Made by a program: the position numbers and the translations under genes
Shown here: positions 7,293 through 36,351 of the stretch, piece after piece
How positions within the stretch are numbered: position 1 is the first letter of the stretch
Layout of the letters: each line of letters starts with the position of its first letter
IMG/VR virus record: IMGVR_UViG_3300037313_001206
Span: 1-39,136 of that record
Reading direction: 5' to 3' (one strand)
From: a virus
Lineage: Duplodnaviria > Caudoviricetes
Length of the DNA stretch: 39,136 nt
The notes under the pieces: model-generated
What the model saw: only the letters and a program-made list of their open reading frames with translations
Told to the model about the DNA's origin: nothing
Databases searched by the model: none

Positions 7293-7330
7293 GATGCTTT
7301 TGTGCCTTTCATCATTAGTTGATACTTAGA

Positions 7331-7359
7331 AGTATACACACCCTATACACACATGTCAA
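7331..7359 (-). promoter_or_regulatory. Sigma70-type promoter for the leftward operon, with direct repeats
   Basis: TTGACA-17 nt-TATACT, with two TGTGTATA copies in the spacer/-10. Confidence 0.8.
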
Positions 7360-7380
7360 CAAGATTCTTACGCTTTCCAT

Positions 7381-7420
7381 AAAATAACTCCCCAATCTCG
7401 GCTACGAGTAACTGGGGAGT
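7381..7420 (-). terminator. Intrinsic terminator
   Basis: ACTCCCCA...TGGGGAGT stem followed by TATTTT. Confidence 0.7.
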
Positions 7421-7443
7421 GTACAAAAGATGGGATATCCGGT

Positions 7444-7604
7444 TGTAGACCATGGGCGAGTTCGTACGTATAGGCTGATACTCTGTAAGCAAGTTACTGT
7501 GCAGTTCGCATCCCGTACCCGACTATTAAGCGCTAACCTGTTCCTTGGGCCTGTAACAGCTTGCTGGGGCCAGTTCTCGCCACGCCGGACATGCTTGGTC
7601 TACA
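7444..7604 (-). ncRNA. ~160-nt rod-like structured RNA
   Basis: Extended -10 TGCTATATT (7611-7619). Nested stems TGTAGACCA/TGGTCTACA, GGCGAG/CTCGCC and AGCAA..GTTAC/GTAACTTGCT. Terminator downstream. Confidence 0.6.
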
Positions 7605-7657
7605 TTTCGTAATATAGCACACTTGCTTTTTTGAGTAAGAATGCTTACAGTAATAAG

Positions 7658-8272
7658 CACTATTTGCTATTCGTAATAACAAATAGAAAACCCACCGGTT
7701 AAGGTGGGCTGCTATTCGTAATACTTACAATATAGCATTTCTATTTCATTACGTCAACACTAACAAGTAGTTAGTCTGGGGAGCCTTTATGCGGGCACCG
7801 AACAACTCGGCTGAGACGACGATAAATTAGGCAGTCCGAGCGGTACACACCTTAACAGTAGATATTGGTAGTGAACTGCTCAGATGTAGTTTACTTGGAT
7901 AAAACACCACTCCCTTAAAAAAGGCAGAGGAGAAGTTCGTTAAACCCGAACCGCTGAGGCTCACTACCATTCACCTACTGTTAAGGCCACAAGCATAAAC
8001 AACGTTTAGTGCTATCGTAAAGCGCCTGGTGACGTAGTGAGGATAGATACGCCCTCCGCCCTTTAACAAGTACGATAAGTTGATCCCCTCCTTTTCCCTA
8101 CGGGACTGTGAGCCTAGCTAACGCCTTTTATATGCCTTTAGTTAGAACGAGAGACCATCTAATAACCACTGACTATGTATAGTACGACACACTTTGGACA
8201 GGTTGCACTACCGAGCCAGAAGAATGTGAGGTACCCCTTTAGCCGCTAGGCAGCGAAAAGAAAGGGGTTATT
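7658..8272 (+). ncRNA. Candidate ~600-nt structured RNA / replication-origin region
   Basis: TTGCTT-17-TACAGT promoter (7623-7651) and no ORF >=60 aa. 12-bp inverted repeat 7850-7861/7975-7986 encloses a 9-bp one (7866-7874/7961-7969). Terminal hairpin 8233-8268 followed by TATTT. Confidence 0.45.
7686..7722 (-). ncRNA. ~37-nt cis-antisense sRNA
   Basis: TTGACG-17-TATATT promoter with TG extension (7757-7729), and terminator CCCACC/GGTGGG followed by TTTTC. Confidence 0.6.
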
Positions 8273-8296
8273 TGTCGTGGTAAAATAAGGAGAATT

Positions 8297-8389
8297 ATGA
8301 CAAACAAGAACAGCCTCATTCCCTGCATGGACAACGGTCAAGGCGCTTGTGTGTTCTGTGGTGAAGAACTGCACTGCATCTCTCTATAA
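8297..8389 (+). CDS. 30-aa Cys-rich mini-protein
   Basis: TAAGGAG RBS, MTNKNSLIPCMDNGQGACVFCGEELHCISL*. Confidence 0.5.
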   Translation: MTNKNSLIPCMDNGQGACVFCGEELHCISL

Positions 8390-8392
8390 CCT

Positions 8393-8468
8393 AAAACCCC
8401 CAAGCGCAAAGAGGTAATCAAAACACTTGGGGGTTTGTATTTAGCTTACGGTACAGCATGGATACCGT
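8393..8468 (-). ncRNA. sRNA cassette 3
   Basis: TGCTATACT (-10 at 8475-8480), 5' hairpin ACGGTA/TACCGT, and terminator AAACCCCCAAG/CTTGGGGGTTT with a 21-nt loop. Confidence 0.6.
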
Positions 8469-8482
8469 GGCTGTAGTATAGC

Positions 8483-8568
8483 AAAAAGAAAAAGACCCCA
8501 AACGCACAGGGTCTTTTCTATAACTGATGTGAGCATGCGCGCTTACAGCCAGTAGCAACTTTCTAGCC
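8483..8568 (-). ncRNA. sRNA cassette 2
   Basis: TGATATGCT (-10 at 8574-8579), and terminator AAAAGACCC/GGGTCTTTT followed by a T-tract. Confidence 0.55.
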
Positions 8569-8583
8569 CTACTAGCATATCAC

Positions 8584-8650
8584 AAAAAGAAACACCTCCG
8601 GGATCAAGGGAGGTGTTCACTTATCGAAATGTGTGAGGGTGCGCTCACGA
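8584..8650 (-). ncRNA. sRNA cassette 1
   Basis: TGGTATAAT (-10 at 8656-8661), 5' hairpin GTGAG/CTCAC, and terminator AACACCTCC/GGAGGTGTT followed by TCTTTTT. Confidence 0.6.
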
Positions 8651-8656
8651 GTTTGA

Positions 8657-8935
8657 TTATACCAACACATTACGCTCTGGGCCAAATTCCGGCCAACGAT
8701 CGCGCAGTTGCTCTGCATAATTCGTCTCCGAAATACTGTCGTATACATTCGCATAGCTCAGCAAAGCCACTTTTCCGGCCATTTCAGCGCCTTTATACAC
8801 GATACTGGTAAATGTATTGGCTGCGGTGCCTAAAGCTGCTTGGAGGGCTTCTACGCGTTGCTGGCGGACAAAGCTAGGGTCTAGTTCCCCGTCGCGGGTA
8901 ATGGTGAATTGTTCTAGTGTTTGTGTTTCTTTCAT
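8657..8935 (-). CDS. Hypothetical protein
   Basis: Start likely MKETQ (8935), shortly after TGTTATTAT. Divergent from the 9002 ORF. Confidence 0.65.
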   Translation of the reverse strand: MKETQTLEQFTITRDGELDPSFVRQQRVEALQAALGTAANTFTSIVYKGAEMAGKVALLSYANVYDSISETNYAEQLRDRWPEFGPERNVLV

Positions 8936-9001: not shown

Positions 9002-9286
9002 ATGAGTACAACTGCCCACACCAATGACTTTTCAGAACTTATAGAATCTTACCTAGATGCCGATATGAAGGCTGCTATACAAGATGCTTTCGACCGTGCC
9101 ATTGAGCAAGCCGTAGCTGAGGCAGAAAACAAACGTGATGAAGTAGTAGCCTCTACCCTACTCAAGTTATCCAAACACATGAAAGTAGTAGCCTCTAACC
9201 TACTCAAGTTATCCAAACACATGAGTATTCAGGACATGTCTACAGCTCTTCGTATTGAAATTAGTAAACCAGATAAGGATTTATAG
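9002..9286 (+). CDS. Hypothetical helical protein with 14-aa internal duplication
   Basis: ATG 6 nt after TATAGT (leaderless-type). VVASTLLKLSKHMK / VVASNLLKLSKHMS. Confidence 0.7.
   Translation: MSTTAHTNDFSELIESYLDADMKAAIQDAFDRAIEQAVAEAENKRDEVVASTLLKLSKHMKVVASNLLKLSKHMSIQDMSTALRIEISKPDKDL
9141..9224 (+). repeat. 42-bp tandem duplication (2 copies, 1 mismatch)
   Basis: AAGTAGTAGCCTCTA[C/A]CCTACTCAAGTTATCCAAACACATGA x2. Confidence 0.95.
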
Positions 9287-9453
9287 TGCCATTTAACACC
9301 TCCCAACACTCCAACCTAGGCTATGTAGATAAAGAGTACAAAGTACTGTTAGACAAGCTCTGTGCAGCCGAGAAGCGATCCATTAAAGATGAACTGGAAG
9401 TACTCATTTATAGGGCTGCCGTGAGTATGGATATAACCACTAGCAAAAAGTAG
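9286..9453 (+). CDS. Arc/RHH-like DNA-binding protein (55 aa)
   Basis: GTG start after AAGGA. VDKEYKVLLDKLCAAEKRSIKDELEVLI fits the Arc-like L..L...A.E.RS...E pattern. Confidence 0.6.
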   Translation: MPFNTSQHSNLGYVDKEYKVLLDKLCAAEKRSIKDELEVLIYRAAVSMDITTSKK

Positions 9454-12358: not shown

Positions 12359-12436
12359 GGGCGCATGGTGTAACGGTAGATCACACCCCCGTACAGGGGA
12401 TATGAGGTTCCGGTTCGATTCCGGATGCGCCCACCT
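12359..12436 (+). tRNA. Atypical tRNA / pseudo-tRNA (anticodon possibly GTA, Tyr-like)
   Basis: Acceptor GGGCGCA/TGCGCCC, D-arm GTG..CAC, canonical T-arm TCCGG-TTCGATT-CCGGA. Anticodon arm CCCCC-GTACA-GGGG is irregular and the 3' end reads ACCT. Confidence 0.7.
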
Positions 12437-32741: not shown

Positions 32742-33296
32742 TCAAGCGTTTCTCAGCAGCGTTTCCATATCCCAACTGCCCTTCCACTTAATAAAGTAGT
32801 CATTTTCCAGCACCATGTTCGTCCGGCCGTGTTTTTCGGTGAACCTATTACCATCAGCTAAGGGTTGCAGTTCCACGTACTCGCCCAGTTCCATGTACTG
32901 GCGGCACCACTGACCTTCACCTAATAGAACGTCATCAATTTTATTACGGACGGTTGGAAAAGTTAGCTTATCGACCTGCTGCCGCCGGAATTTGCCGAAA
33001 AACATCAGGAATCGTTCGCCGAGCATTACCGACTGTCCGGCGTAGTCTTTAAAGAGGATGTCCCACACGGCATTGTCCTTGATTACCATTGATTCGTTCA
33101 AGAACACAATCTCGTCGTAATCGAGTCGCTGGCAGGTCTGCTGAATGGCACCCATGCACCACTCACTACCGGTGTGGTTAGTAATTACTACTGGGTATTC
33201 GGTGTTAATCGATTGCAGCAGGGGAATCAGCCACTTTGCGTCACCCTCACGATGGTGGATGATACAAATGAACTGCCTTAACTTACGTTGTTTCAT
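32742..33296 (-). CDS. Possible divergent glycosyltransferase (GT-A-like)
   Basis: Last gene of the sugar cassette. YDEIVFLNES resembles the GT-A DxD strand. Confidence 0.45.
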   Translation of the reverse strand: MKQRKLRQFICIIHHREGDAKWLIPLLQSINTEYPVVITNHTGSEWCMGAIQQTCQRLDYDEIVFLNESMVIKDNAVWDILFKDYAGQSVMLGERFLMFFGKFRRQQVDKLTFPTVRNKIDDVLLGEGQWCRQYMELGEYVELQPLADGNRFTEKHGRTNMVLENDYFIKWKGSWDMETLLRNA

Positions 33297-34251
33297 GGTG
33301 CATCGTGTCGGTTTCGTGCGGCTGCGTCCATGTCCTGCCACAGTTATCGATATACCAGTCAATGGTGAGAGTCATCCCCTCTTTTAGAGGTATCAGTTCG
33401 TCTGGATGCATCCCAATAGCCCGTAAACTCTGGTTGTCGGCCGTCACCTTGTCACCGGCTTTTTCACCGGGGCGCATGGGCAAGCTAACGATATCGACCG
33501 GAGTATAGCCTTTGGCAGCGACAAGTTCGTTAACCAGGTCGGCGACCTGCCGAATCGTGTGGTGCTCAGTGGGGCCGACCTCTACCGCGTAATCGAGTAC
33601 TTCACCACGTTCAGCGCTTTCTAACGCGTTGACGAGTGCCCGAGCGACGTCACCGACGTACACCATGTCGGAGACCTGTGTGCCACCCCCGTACAGTTCC
33701 ATCGGCATACCAGATAAGGCCCGGCAAACCAGACTCGGGGTAATCTTACGGACTTTGCCGTGCGCAAACGGAGCGACGGCTAACTGACGTTCACCGTAAG
33801 CATTGACAGCCCGGACAATGTTGACCCGCGTGCCTCGATCCTTGTTGTACATGTGTGTGAAGCGCTCGATCATGTTTTTTGTAATCGAGTAGGGATTATT
33901 CATCCACCAATTTCCTACAGCGATGTAGACACCTGGTAAGTTATACTGACTGACGGCTTCCAGGAAATTGAGGCCGCCTTCTAAGTTACTGCGGGCTGCG
34001 GGTCGGGGGTTGGCAATCGTTTCCTGGGTGCCTAAGACAGCAGCCAAGTGGATGATACCATCGACGTGGGCTGCCAGTTCAGCCATGGCGACTTCATCAC
34101 GGACGTCACCGAGGAACATTTCGACGTCAGGCCGGTGTAGTTCGTGTTCGTGGTGGTCAAAGACGACCGGGTAGTAACCTCGGGCGATTAGTTCATCAAT
34201 AACGTGACTGCCAATAAACCCGGCCCCACCGGTAATGCCCACTTTTTTCAC
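33283..34251 (-). CDS. NAD-dependent epimerase/dehydratase (extended SDR)
   Basis: ITGGAGFIG, IHLAA, YSITK, NAYG, DMVYVGDVA. Confidence 0.92.
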   Translation of the reverse strand: MKKVGITGGAGFIGSHVIDELIARGYYPVVFDHHEHELHRPDVEMFLGDVRDEVAMAELAAHVDGIIHLAAVLGTQETIANPRPAARSNLEGGLNFLEAVSQYNLPGVYIAVGNWWMNNPYSITKNMIERFTHMYNKDRGTRVNIVRAVNAYGERQLAVAPFAHGKVRKITPSLVCRALSGMPMELYGGGTQVSDMVYVGDVARALVNALESAERGEVLDYAVEVGPTEHHTIRQVADLVNELVAAKGYTPVDIVSLPMRPGEKAGDKVTADNQSLRAIGMHPDELIPLKEGMTLTIDWYIDNCGRTWTQPHETDTMHHETT

Positions 34252-35252
34252 TGTAAATACTCCTTATTGTTTAGTGTCCACTCGACGGTACGTTGGAGTG
34301 ATTCCTCCAAACTGAACGGTGCTTTCCAGCCTAATGCCGCTAACTTCGACCCATCTAAGGCGTAACGTAGGTCATGCCCGGGCCGCGAGCTGTGAAAATC
34401 AGCCAATTCATACTTCAGCGGTTTGCCCATGTACTGGGCGACTAGCTGGGCCATTTGAAGATTGTCAATCTCCCGTTCGCCGACGATGTGGAACTTATCG
34501 GGTTTATCGCTGTCCCCGTAGCGAACCGGCTCGACGTGGGTGAGTAGGTACAGCAGTGCGTCGGCTTGGTTCCGGGCGTGTAAGTAGAAACGGGAGCCAA
34601 TTTCGCCCGTTTTGGAGGCGTGGATGGTTATTGGTTCGCCCTTGGCTACCTTTTGCATGACCATCGGGACGAACTTCTCAGCGTCCTGCAACTCACCGAT
34701 GATGTTCATGGTGTTAGTGATAATCAGGGGAATACCGTATGTACGCCAGTACGCAAAACAGATAGATTCCTGGGCAGCTTTGGAGGCTGAGTAAGGATTA
34801 CTCGGCAGGTATGTCTCCCATTCAACATGGTTGTGACCCTTCGGAGCCGGGCCATACACTTCATCGGTGCTGACCTGGAGAAACTTACTTACTGGGTACT
34901 CGCGGGCGTACTCCAGGAGTGTCAACATGAGCTGGACGTTGTTCTCAATAAAATCGCGTGGTTCGGCAATCGAGCGGTCAACATGGCTTTCGCTTGCCAT
35001 GCTAATGATGTAGTCCAAGCGCCCTATTTTGCGGGCCAGGATAGACGAAATTGGCACCCTGAGGTCGTGAACAAAGACGTGTACGCGGCTTTTGTCCTGT
35101 CCGTCTAATTGGGTGGCAACTCGGTCGGTTGTCCCCTTGTGCCGGAAACTGTCCAAAACGACAATTTCCCAGTCAGTATTTACCAGTAAGTGGCGCAAGG
35201 TGTGGGAACCCACAAAACCACCGGCTCCCGTCAATAACACTCGTTTTGGCAT
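34248..35252 (-). CDS. rfbB: dTDP-glucose 4,6-dehydratase (RmlB/RfbB-like)
   Basis: TGAGGFVG, ASESHVDRSI, STDEVYG, PSNPYSASKAA, RPGHDLRYA. Confidence 0.9.
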   Translation of the reverse strand: MPKRVLLTGAGGFVGSHTLRHLLVNTDWEIVVLDSFRHKGTTDRVATQLDGQDKSRVHVFVHDLRVPISSILARKIGRLDYIISMASESHVDRSIAEPRDFIENNVQLMLTLLEYAREYPVSKFLQVSTDEVYGPAPKGHNHVEWETYLPSNPYSASKAAQESICFAYWRTYGIPLIITNTMNIIGELQDAEKFVPMVMQKVAKGEPITIHASKTGEIGSRFYLHARNQADALLYLLTHVEPVRYGDSDKPDKFHIVGEREIDNLQMAQLVAQYMGKPLKYELADFHSSRPGHDLRYALDGSKLAALGWKAPFSLEESLQRTVEWTLNNKEYLQ

Positions 35253-35256
35253 GTTT

Positions 35257-36351
35257 TTAAACTCCTTTACTGTTATAAACTCGTTCAAAGAACGCTTTGT
35301 ACTCTTGCCAGTGGTCTTCTAAGCGCCACTTGGTAAGCTCGACTTGGGCGTGGCTGACCTGCTGCCGCCGGAACTCGACATTGTATATAAGTTTCTCCAA
35401 GGCGTGCAGCCATGGGTAGTAGTGGTTGCTGACTTTCAATGTCACCGTATCAGGCAAATCGGCGTACGGGCCGACGTTACTGCAAATGGTCGCGGCACCC
35501 ATACGCGTGGCTTCCTGCCACTTGATGTTACTCTTCCCCTCGTTAAAGATGTTATTTAAGACTGGGACGATACAAATATCCATTTGGAGCGTTGGAAACA
35601 ACTCGGTCACCCACTTTTCGCCGCGTTTGCCGTCGTGGAAGTGAGTGCGGGCTTTCGGAGTGTTCATTGCCATGGGCATGTTGATGGTTTTGAAGTGAAG
35701 GTTACGGTCTTTCCGCATCAAGTGTTTGATAGCTTGGGTGACATGGCTCTGGTTGAGGTCGCCGAAGTGGCTGGCACCTCCGAAATAGCCAATCACGGTG
35801 CGCGGTGTGTTGTCGAACGGGGGATGCTGGTAACTATCGGGCAGGTAATTGGGCAGTACCCCCACCGTTTCGATGTCTTGCGTGCGACGAGCGCGGAAAA
35901 CGTCAGCCAACCGTTCAGTAGTGGTGGTAATCCACGCGACGTCTTTAATCATGTTCTGCATGTACCAGACCTGCTCGTGGCCGACTTTCGTCCAAAAGGG
36001 GTTATCGGGGTTGACGTGGAACAGATCATCATCCGCATCGAGCACGAATTGGGTGCCGAAACGGTCGTGCACTACTTTCATGAGCAGGTAAGCGGTGTAA
36101 TCGGGGAAGTAACTGCTCCACACGATGTCAAACTGACCGAGGTAAGTGGCGGCTCTCTCCAGCTCTTCTTCGGAGAAGTCTTTTTTGTCCTTGTACTTCT
36201 CGATGCCCCTAATGAACGTTGGCTGCTCCTCGATTTGCCAATCAACGTGCTTTTTGAGCTCCCGGAGGGGTCGGACGATACGCCACAAGTCCACGGCTGA
36301 CTCGGCCTGTTCAACACCCCACCCGATGGAATGGATTGCCAGTAGCTTCAT
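35257..36351 (-). CDS. Glycosyltransferase (GT-B, phage type)
   Basis: LWRIVRP, DADDDL, IGYFGGASHFGD, DICIVPV..NIFNEGKSNIKWQEA. Confidence 0.85.
   Translation of the reverse strand: MKLLAIHSIGWGVEQAESAVDLWRIVRPLRELKKHVDWQIEEQPTFIRGIEKYKDKKDFSEEELERAATYLGQFDIVWSSYFPDYTAYLLMKVVHDRFGTQFVLDADDDLFHVNPDNPFWTKVGHEQVWYMQNMIKDVAWITTTTERLADVFRARRTQDIETVGVLPNYLPDSYQHPPFDNTPRTVIGYFGGASHFGDLNQSHVTQAIKHLMRKDRNLHFKTINMPMAMNTPKARTHFHDGKRGEKWVTELFPTLQMDICIVPVLNNIFNEGKSNIKWQEATRMGAATICSNVGPYADLPDTVTLKVSNHYYPWLHALEKLIYNVEFRRQQVSHAQVELTKWRLEDHWQEYKAFFERVYNSKGV

Follow-up and report, generated by a model that had tools for sequence, protein, structure and literature searches.

The question raised by this locus is what a pair of short direct repeats between two convergent promoters does in a phage genome in which no replication initiator and no repressor have been detected. 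The window, that is, the entire 39,136-nucleotide stretch of DNA analyzed here, comprises a whole phage genome of 39 kb that has a terminal repeat and genes for terminase, portal and capsid, and the locus lies within a 1.3-kb gene-poor stretch that separates divergent operons. The ORF searches revealed no Rep, primase, helicase, polymerase, integrase or ParA, either in the window (67 ORFs with Pfam, 40 with PHROGs and 25 with NCBIfam) or among the 21 non-structural ORFs tested from the complete genome G002. Furthermore, the searched ORFs of both genomes yielded no repressor, although divergent control regions usually hold one. Because most of the small ORFs have no family match, a Rep protein could have been missed.

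The host of this phage is probably a Saccharibacterium, one of a group of tiny parasitic bacteria, as suggested by the terminase matches and by the presence of one allele of the switch described below on a phage contig binned with a Saccharibacteria-class genome. In 2 of 301 genomes, from the class that includes a MAG titled "Candidatus Saccharibacteria", the window terminase has matches at 61-62% identity; with cultured phages it reaches 42% at best. Among the other features of these genomes are a tRNA-Val(TAC) gene at 12359-12435, the only Rfam match in the window to reach the gathering score; next to the capsid module, two genes for NAD-dependent sugar epimerases/dehydratases (33283-35288), with sugar-modifying genes also found downstream of the switch in L057 and in G115:C64; a 42-nt tandem duplication (9141-9224) within the ORF at 9002-9286; and a 92-aa protein (8657-8935) with one relative, for which no function was found. 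The 757-aa terminase gene of L438 (8174-10447) carries a long insertion, overlaps a 200-aa ORF in a different frame, and by eye resembles a gene with an intein or an intron with an endonuclease.

The preliminary description of this locus reported a 14-mer, TGCTATTCGTAATA, present twice, and we found both copies as described, at 7665-7678 (copy 1) and 7710-7723 (copy 2) on the plus strand. Of 20,000 stretches of 200 nt simulated with the same composition, 5 contained an exact 14-nt repeat, and such a repeat with copies less than 100 nt apart was found somewhere in 7 of 300 simulated whole windows; no further site with one or two mismatches exists anywhere in the window. Upstream of copy 1, a plus-strand promoter is predicted at 7623-7651 (-35 TTGCTT at 7623-7628, -10 TACAGT at 7646-7651, spacer 17), with a start at approximately 7657-7659; this promoter was read by eye and is below the threshold of the promoter scan. 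Both of its hexamers are unchanged in L001, X4 and X7, with variation in the spacer. On the minus strand, the scan found a promoter at 7729-7757 (TTGACG-17-TATATT) and a terminator (7710-7689), which lie on either side of copy 2; the terminator segment as a whole (7687-7710) consists of the GC hairpin H2 (7691-7708) and a U-tract. Together, these signals would delimit a minus-strand antisense sRNA (7683-7722) of about 37-40 nt, with a 13-nt 5' tail followed by the terminator hairpin.

The arrangement can be compared among related phages. The sister phage L001, with structural genes 98% identical to those of the window, matches the window up to position 7668, diverges until approximately 8280 and then matches again. 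The swapped block (7669-8279) has the same layout and contains a different 14-mer, again present twice. Three more alleles (L057, L081 and L155) came from pattern scans, and a sixth, L428, was found by a sequence-only model built from the other five. Across the six alleles, all from uncultured phages, there are six different repeats, with lengths of 14, 14, 10, 13, 12 and 9 nt. At the first six variable positions, the two copies match within an allele in all 36 comparisons, a value reached by 1 of the 720 permutations (mean 19). Among related phages, the two copies thus change together, which is what would be expected of an incompatibility or immunity signature, and the check proposed in the preliminary description is borne out. 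The spacing between the copies ranges from 43 to 54 bp over the six alleles, with no fixed helical phase.

The switch appears to be patchily distributed, given that a search of 23 virus records with related terminases, including 7 that are at least 90% complete, did not find it. Among public contigs, X2 (near-identical to the window), X3, X4 and X7 carry the window allele, X5 and X6 carry the L001-type junction, and X1 may be from the source sample. The upstream flanks of the sisters L057 and L081 are 97.6% identical. Among 241 pattern matches, 11 rows were switch elements, with a shared prefix of 10-14 nt, and of the other 230, a single one, a tandem coding repeat, had a prefix of at least 10 nt. 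The exact two-copy pattern of the window had no match in viral contigs, and a further viral pattern scan, covering 33 of 64 parts, added no member. A scan of GTDB gave 92 matches, none with the switch layout, using a pattern that cannot catch the window's own -35 variant. In Saccharibacteria-class genomes, model R1 produced 15 weak matches, of which one was true (298 genomes), and the pattern search of 401 genomes gave two matches, one of them true, along with two control matches.

The elements of the putative sRNA gene are retained along with the duplication. All six alleles have TTGAC(A/G) and a -10 box 16-17 nt away in the antisense promoter, the terminator, and a promoter-like plus-strand site at an equal distance. 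The predicted sRNAs are 36-41 nt long, with a 5' tail of 9-13 nt ahead of the terminator hairpin. In every allele, the repeat ends within ~1 nt of the predicted sRNA start, with the length of the repeat decreasing as the -10 box gets closer. Copy 2 can therefore be interpreted as the template of the sRNA tail. In the plus transcript, it is largely buried in hairpin H3 (7710-7738), which likewise marks it as a template rather than an equivalent second target, contrary to the two-target scheme put forward initially. Copy 1, the predicted target of the tail, lies, as had been proposed, in a predicted 5' hairpin of the plus transcript, H1 (7660-7686), with the allele-specific nucleotides in the loop or upper stem. 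For L057, L081 and L155, its variable bases are predicted to be entirely unpaired; in the window and L001, they are in part paired.

The proposal that the 5' end of the sRNA is unpaired holds in part. In the version that ends in the U-tract, the first 7-8 nt are predicted to be open (P ~0.9-1.0), but nucleotides 8-11 can pair with the tail; in a 49-nt version extending to 7675, the 5' end is predicted to be folded back almost completely. Net binding of the sRNA to H1 is predicted at -8.1 to -14.0 kcal/mol for the cognate pairs of the six alleles and at 0 to -4.1 kcal/mol for the 30 non-cognate pairs, so that binding is predicted to be allele-specific. These models support the claim of a tiny antisense RNA with a 5' tail matching the hairpin copy of the opposite transcript. 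We also considered a mechanism in which the tail would act as a guide primer for many sites and rejected it for this element, given that there are no scattered matches to the tail across the genome.

The third, partial copy of the repeat noted previously, TTCGTAATA, is indeed present at 7606-7614, but a role for it in the switch did not hold up, because it does not covary with the repeat. It is unchanged in L001, although the L001 repeat differs, and it is altered in contigs X4, X7 and X8, while X4 and X7 retain both full copies. From these comparisons, the third copy is part of the neighboring promoter and outside the switch: it overlaps a separate minus-strand promoter, arranged back-to-back, in the -10/+1 region. 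That extended -10 promoter (7619-7610) precedes a second non-coding unit on the minus strand (7383-7619), in which a helix of 9 bp closes 7604-7444 and a strong hairpin lies near 7388-7418. The unit shares 89% identity with L001 and has no counterpart in Rfam; its overall fold is not significant (z = -0.55). A different conserved RNA of ~95 nt, with its own promoter, is located directly upstream of the switch in L057 (2400-2500) and at the equivalent positions in L081 and L155; its terminator overlaps the switch plus promoter, its column identity is 83%, and it has no Rfam match. The segment at 7650-7659 appears to be complementary to the repeat and covaries between the window and L001, but it is mostly upstream of the predicted plus start. 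In a Saccharibacteria-class genome, L431 (G045:C1), a different 15-nt direct repeat flanks a GC hairpin at 336-475, just upstream of a 288-aa ORF that looks by eye like a tyrosine integrase; this is possibly another repeat-based antisense control.

Folding of growing plus transcripts suggests what the antisense RNA would act upon. We distinguish four plus-strand segments: alpha (7659-7668; ACT(A/G)TTTGC in all six alleles), the 5' arm of H1; beta (7678-7689), its 3' arm; gamma (7735-7754), an alternative partner of beta; and delta (7764-7771), a later partner of alpha that can alternatively form a local hairpin (7759-7775). Five alleles undergo the same predicted rearrangement, from alpha:beta to beta:gamma plus alpha:delta, and L428, which was found after the switch had been defined from these five, folds likewise. 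Tested against shuffled sequences in each allele, the three helices gave p = 0.0003-0.055, and the combined p-values are inflated because the tested intervals were chosen after the five folds had been seen and the alleles are related; controls with shifted intervals gave combined p = 0.68 and 0.07. Position 4 of alpha and its partner in delta form A-U in three alleles and G-C in the other three, and the only change in 7657-7857 of X4 and X7, G7767A, converts a G-U pair of alpha:delta to A-U. When copy 1 is blocked in the folding, most of the alpha:delta pairing is lost and delta pairs locally; in the window, the equilibrium weight of alpha:delta is low. In the window allele, gamma can also pair with a distant segment at about 8029-8046, which was significant there (0 of 60 shuffles) but not in the other five alleles (18-56 of 60), and we rejected this long-range pairing as a general feature. 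Judged from the covariation of the repeats and these fold models, the locus very probably encodes a conserved, allele-specific antisense switch.

Downstream of the switch, the plus transcript would continue as a long non-coding RNA, the body of which (7760-8280) was swapped as part of the block that differs in L001. In the six alleles, the plus RNA has no SD-led ORF longer than 20 aa for the first ~290-640 nt, and in L428 none at all within 900 nt. The fold of window 7659-8300 is more stable than those of 20 shuffles (z = -4.6). The long RNAs of L001 and L081 are homologous (z = 15.5), with 8 of the 30 pairs compensatory; this is the only alignable pair among the six, so no shared primer motif is detectable. 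The window RNA is related to that of another phage, L031, with 68% identity over 7986-8280 and a common structured domain (window 7850-8280, L031 17-437), in which a flanking helix (window 7850-7861/7975-7986) keeps its pairing with a different sequence; contig X4 has modular insertions. The first sizeable ORF of the plus RNA with a good ribosome-binding site encodes a 30-aa product with Cys/His pairs that is not hydrophobic (8297-8389); its DNA is 98% identical in L001, and the ORF is also kept in X9. It is followed by a hairpin and U-rich run (8394-8441), where the plus transcript is likely to end. In L001 and L081, the RNA continues without a break into an endonuclease gene (GIY-YIG and HNH, respectively), which is absent in sister phages, so in these cases the RNA is also an mRNA. 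The combination of homologous RNAs (L001 5972-6517, L081 1245-1721) with unrelated endonucleases suggests cassette homing.

Several small antisense RNAs of plasmids and phages share parts of this design. The C4 RNA of P1/P7 and CI of P4, to which the locus was first compared, are similar in that short variable segments of phage RNAs set heteroimmunity, but these are ~77-nt three-stem RNAs that are processed from a larger transcript and pair with sites up- and downstream in the same transcript (PMC5320573, PMC4825925). The likeness therefore does not extend to anatomy: C4 and CI are processed from the same strand as their targets, whereas the sRNA in the window has its own promoter on the opposite strand and relies on direct repeats. 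No same-strand complement of the first 9 nt of the sRNA (at most one mismatch) is present between -600 and +1500 in any of the six alleles. Rfam gave nothing over the window switch at E<=10 and nothing at the five other loci at E<=1, with six sub-threshold matches elsewhere in the window region and no match to either the C4 model or RNAI; no antirepressor or replication gene was detected downstream of the switch.

In ColE1, antisense control works via competing helices in the long RNA, and ColE1-type primer RNAs carry a G-rich tract. As with RNA I and RNA II of ColE1, a small cis-antisense RNA here is predicted to bind a long untranslated RNA at its 5' end while this is being transcribed and to alter its fold; no Rep was detected, and allele changes would create incompatibility groups (PMC3035462, PMC5415839). 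An antisense RNA that alters the 5' fold of a long non-coding RNA is found here at the level of prediction and covariation. Unlike ColE1 RNA I, which is ~110 nt long with three stem-loops and complementary to the very 5' end, the RNA described here has ~40 nt, consists of a hairpin and a tail, and would reach its target through a duplicated segment; there is no common G-rich tract across the six long RNAs. The MRB replicons of Vibrionaceae have a conserved core of ~110 bp in which the antisense gene lies together with its promoter; the long RNA is variable, and alleles are compatible (PMC3035462). The conserved antisense core and variable long RNA are shared with the present loci, but MRB RNA I has 68 nt, two stem-loops and full complementarity to RNA II, and the available part of the source describes no duplicated target (PMC3035462). 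A single hairpin and tail stand here against two stems, and there is no sequence match to MRB.

Other systems approach the switch in single features. The par locus of pAD1 (RNA I/RNA II, DRa/DRb) has convergent promoters, an sRNA of ~40 nt and direct repeats that provide complementarity and allele specificity (PMC7472228). Convergent promoters with direct repeats are present here as well, but the switch differs from par in having no toxin ORF and no bidirectional terminator and in targeting an element of RNA folding instead of a ribosome-binding site. RNAII of pMV158, reported to be the smallest replication-control antisense RNA, with a single hairpin and a functional 5' tail, is similar in this respect but blocks repB translation, and no rep gene follows here (PMC4485353). 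An attenuator of the pT181/pIP501 type finds no counterpart: none of the six alleles has a plus-strand terminator within the first 700 nt, and there is no rep gene. Cluster A mycobacteriophages have RNA-based prophage origins, and those that lack RepA require a non-coding RNA for replication; these origins adjoin parABS, and the available part of the source describes no antisense regulator (PMC7157519), whereas no ParA was detected here. Searches with blastn found no match for 7590-8300 among 72,556 plasmids or for 7300-8700 among 50,697 phages, and a similarity search with the L057 region returned terminator-like scraps only. Overall, we could not match the switch architecture, as read from the sequences, to any catalogued family: taken as a whole, it falls outside ColE1, MRB, par, C4 and CI. 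The switch is not described in the literature consulted, mostly freely available and in part in excerpt, and it might be an unnamed entry in the motif tables of RNA surveys (for example, PMC8040213).

Some readings give the repeats a role outside the proposed switch, or none. A chance duplication without function has next to no probability: nearby 14-mer repeats do occur in 7 of the 300 simulated windows, but six alleles retain the duplication while its sequence changes. The preliminary description also raised the possibility that the repeats are operators or iterons for a phage protein, and the copies do overlap the starts of two promoters; the product of the ORF at 9286-9453, which we take to be RHH-like (there is no family match), is only 43% identical in the sister phage and could therefore track the allele. 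Against this, the spacing of the copies varies, the repeat length follows the sRNA start, the hairpin stems around the repeat covary, phages whose repeats differ have HTH proteins that are 99% identical, and the interval swapped between L057 and L081 contains no DNA-binding gene; we regard protein operators as improbable. Still less probable is a type I toxin-antitoxin module of the par/Fst kind, with the direct repeats as a second complementarity site. The convergent promoters, ~40-nt sRNA and allele-variable direct repeats are par features (PMC7472228), but this reading is largely refuted by the lack of any short hydrophobic, toxin-like SD-led ORF within 900 nt in the six alleles; moreover, the terminator is one-directional, and there is no ribosome-binding site near the target.

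In the antisense switch that we favor, the plus RNA would first fold H1 (alpha:beta), exposing the allele-specific nucleotides, and, with no sRNA bound, would refold about 100-120 nt later into beta:gamma and alpha:delta. The single-stranded tail of the sRNA would pair with the H1 loop and invade alpha, blocking alpha:delta, whereupon delta would take its local partner and the downstream RNA would fold differently. Because the sRNA gene ends before H1, the tail can reach H1 only via the duplicated sequence, and this dependence would force the two copies to change together. As for the output, the correctly folded long RNA would prime phage DNA replication, as in ColE1, and the sRNA would limit priming in proportion to copy number; phages with the same allele would be incompatible or excluded, and those with different alleles would be able to coexist. 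The argument for primer control is that a negative regulator that is specific to its allele and acts on the folding of a long RNA that is not translated, where no Rep has been detected, follows the logic of ColE1 and MRB. The long RNA's early stretch with neither an SD-led ORF nor a plus-strand terminator and its structured downstream part also speak for a primer. We put this whole reading, a ColE1-like antisense switch with the long RNA as replication primer, just short of an even chance; replication control is the likeliest output of the switch but a tentative assignment, with the balance leaning slightly against it. The skew at four-fold degenerate sites indicated no replication asymmetry, with null results in the other three records; in the window, the G/C effect at these sites is opposite to that expected if the plus strand were the leading strand (OR 0.77, p = 0.016). 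Further points against priming are the lack of a common G-rich tract, the many unassigned ORFs and, in two alleles, the continuation of the RNA into an endonuclease gene.

The same switch could have other outputs. Premature (Rho-type) termination or loss of an antiterminator, controlling the downstream operons, would serve RNA-based immunity or a lysis/carrier decision, as with P4 CI or pT181 attenuation. All the evidence for the switch fits this equally, the switch is located in a divergent control region, the usual site of a repressor that was not detected here, and the plus RNA leads into long operons in L057, L081 and L155. However, no allele has a hairpin and U-tract after delta, the window RNA ends after the 30-aa ORF, the downstream genes differ in every phage, and in L428 no gene in the sense direction follows the RNA for ~2 kb and the RNA runs into a convergent one; on this evidence, termination control appears unlikely. 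We consider it more unlikely still that the long RNA has a function of its own (as a protein scaffold, ribozyme or anti-defense decoy) or that the switch regulates how the downstream endonuclease or small ORF is translated. The downstream RNAs do have structure, and in L001 and L081 a conserved helix pairs the segment just after delta with bases beside the ribosome-binding site, but this helix leaves the Shine-Dalgarno sequence uncovered, in three alleles the RNA is not directly followed by an endonuclease gene, and there is no Rfam ribozyme match.

If priming is indeed the output, these loci could represent an undescribed, protein-free replicon family of Saccharibacteria phages, in which copy-number control and superinfection immunity would come from one 120-bp switch, a duplicated, freely mutable address would lead a 40-nt RNA to the folding nucleus of a primer RNA, and at least six mutually orthogonal alleles would be exchanged as cassettes, sometimes spread by adjacent homing-type endonucleases. 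We offer this as a speculative possibility, with the chances against it as a whole. The switch is a concrete candidate for how Patescibacteria phages replicate and how they avoid superinfection, in genomes with no recognizable initiator, repressor or integrase, and the natural allele pairs provide built-in controls. An RNA-only origin, if true, would be a starting point for Saccharibacteria plasmids. Whatever the output, the six sRNA/target pairs of ~40 nt, which are predicted to be orthogonal, provide a compact model of co-transcriptional antisense control.
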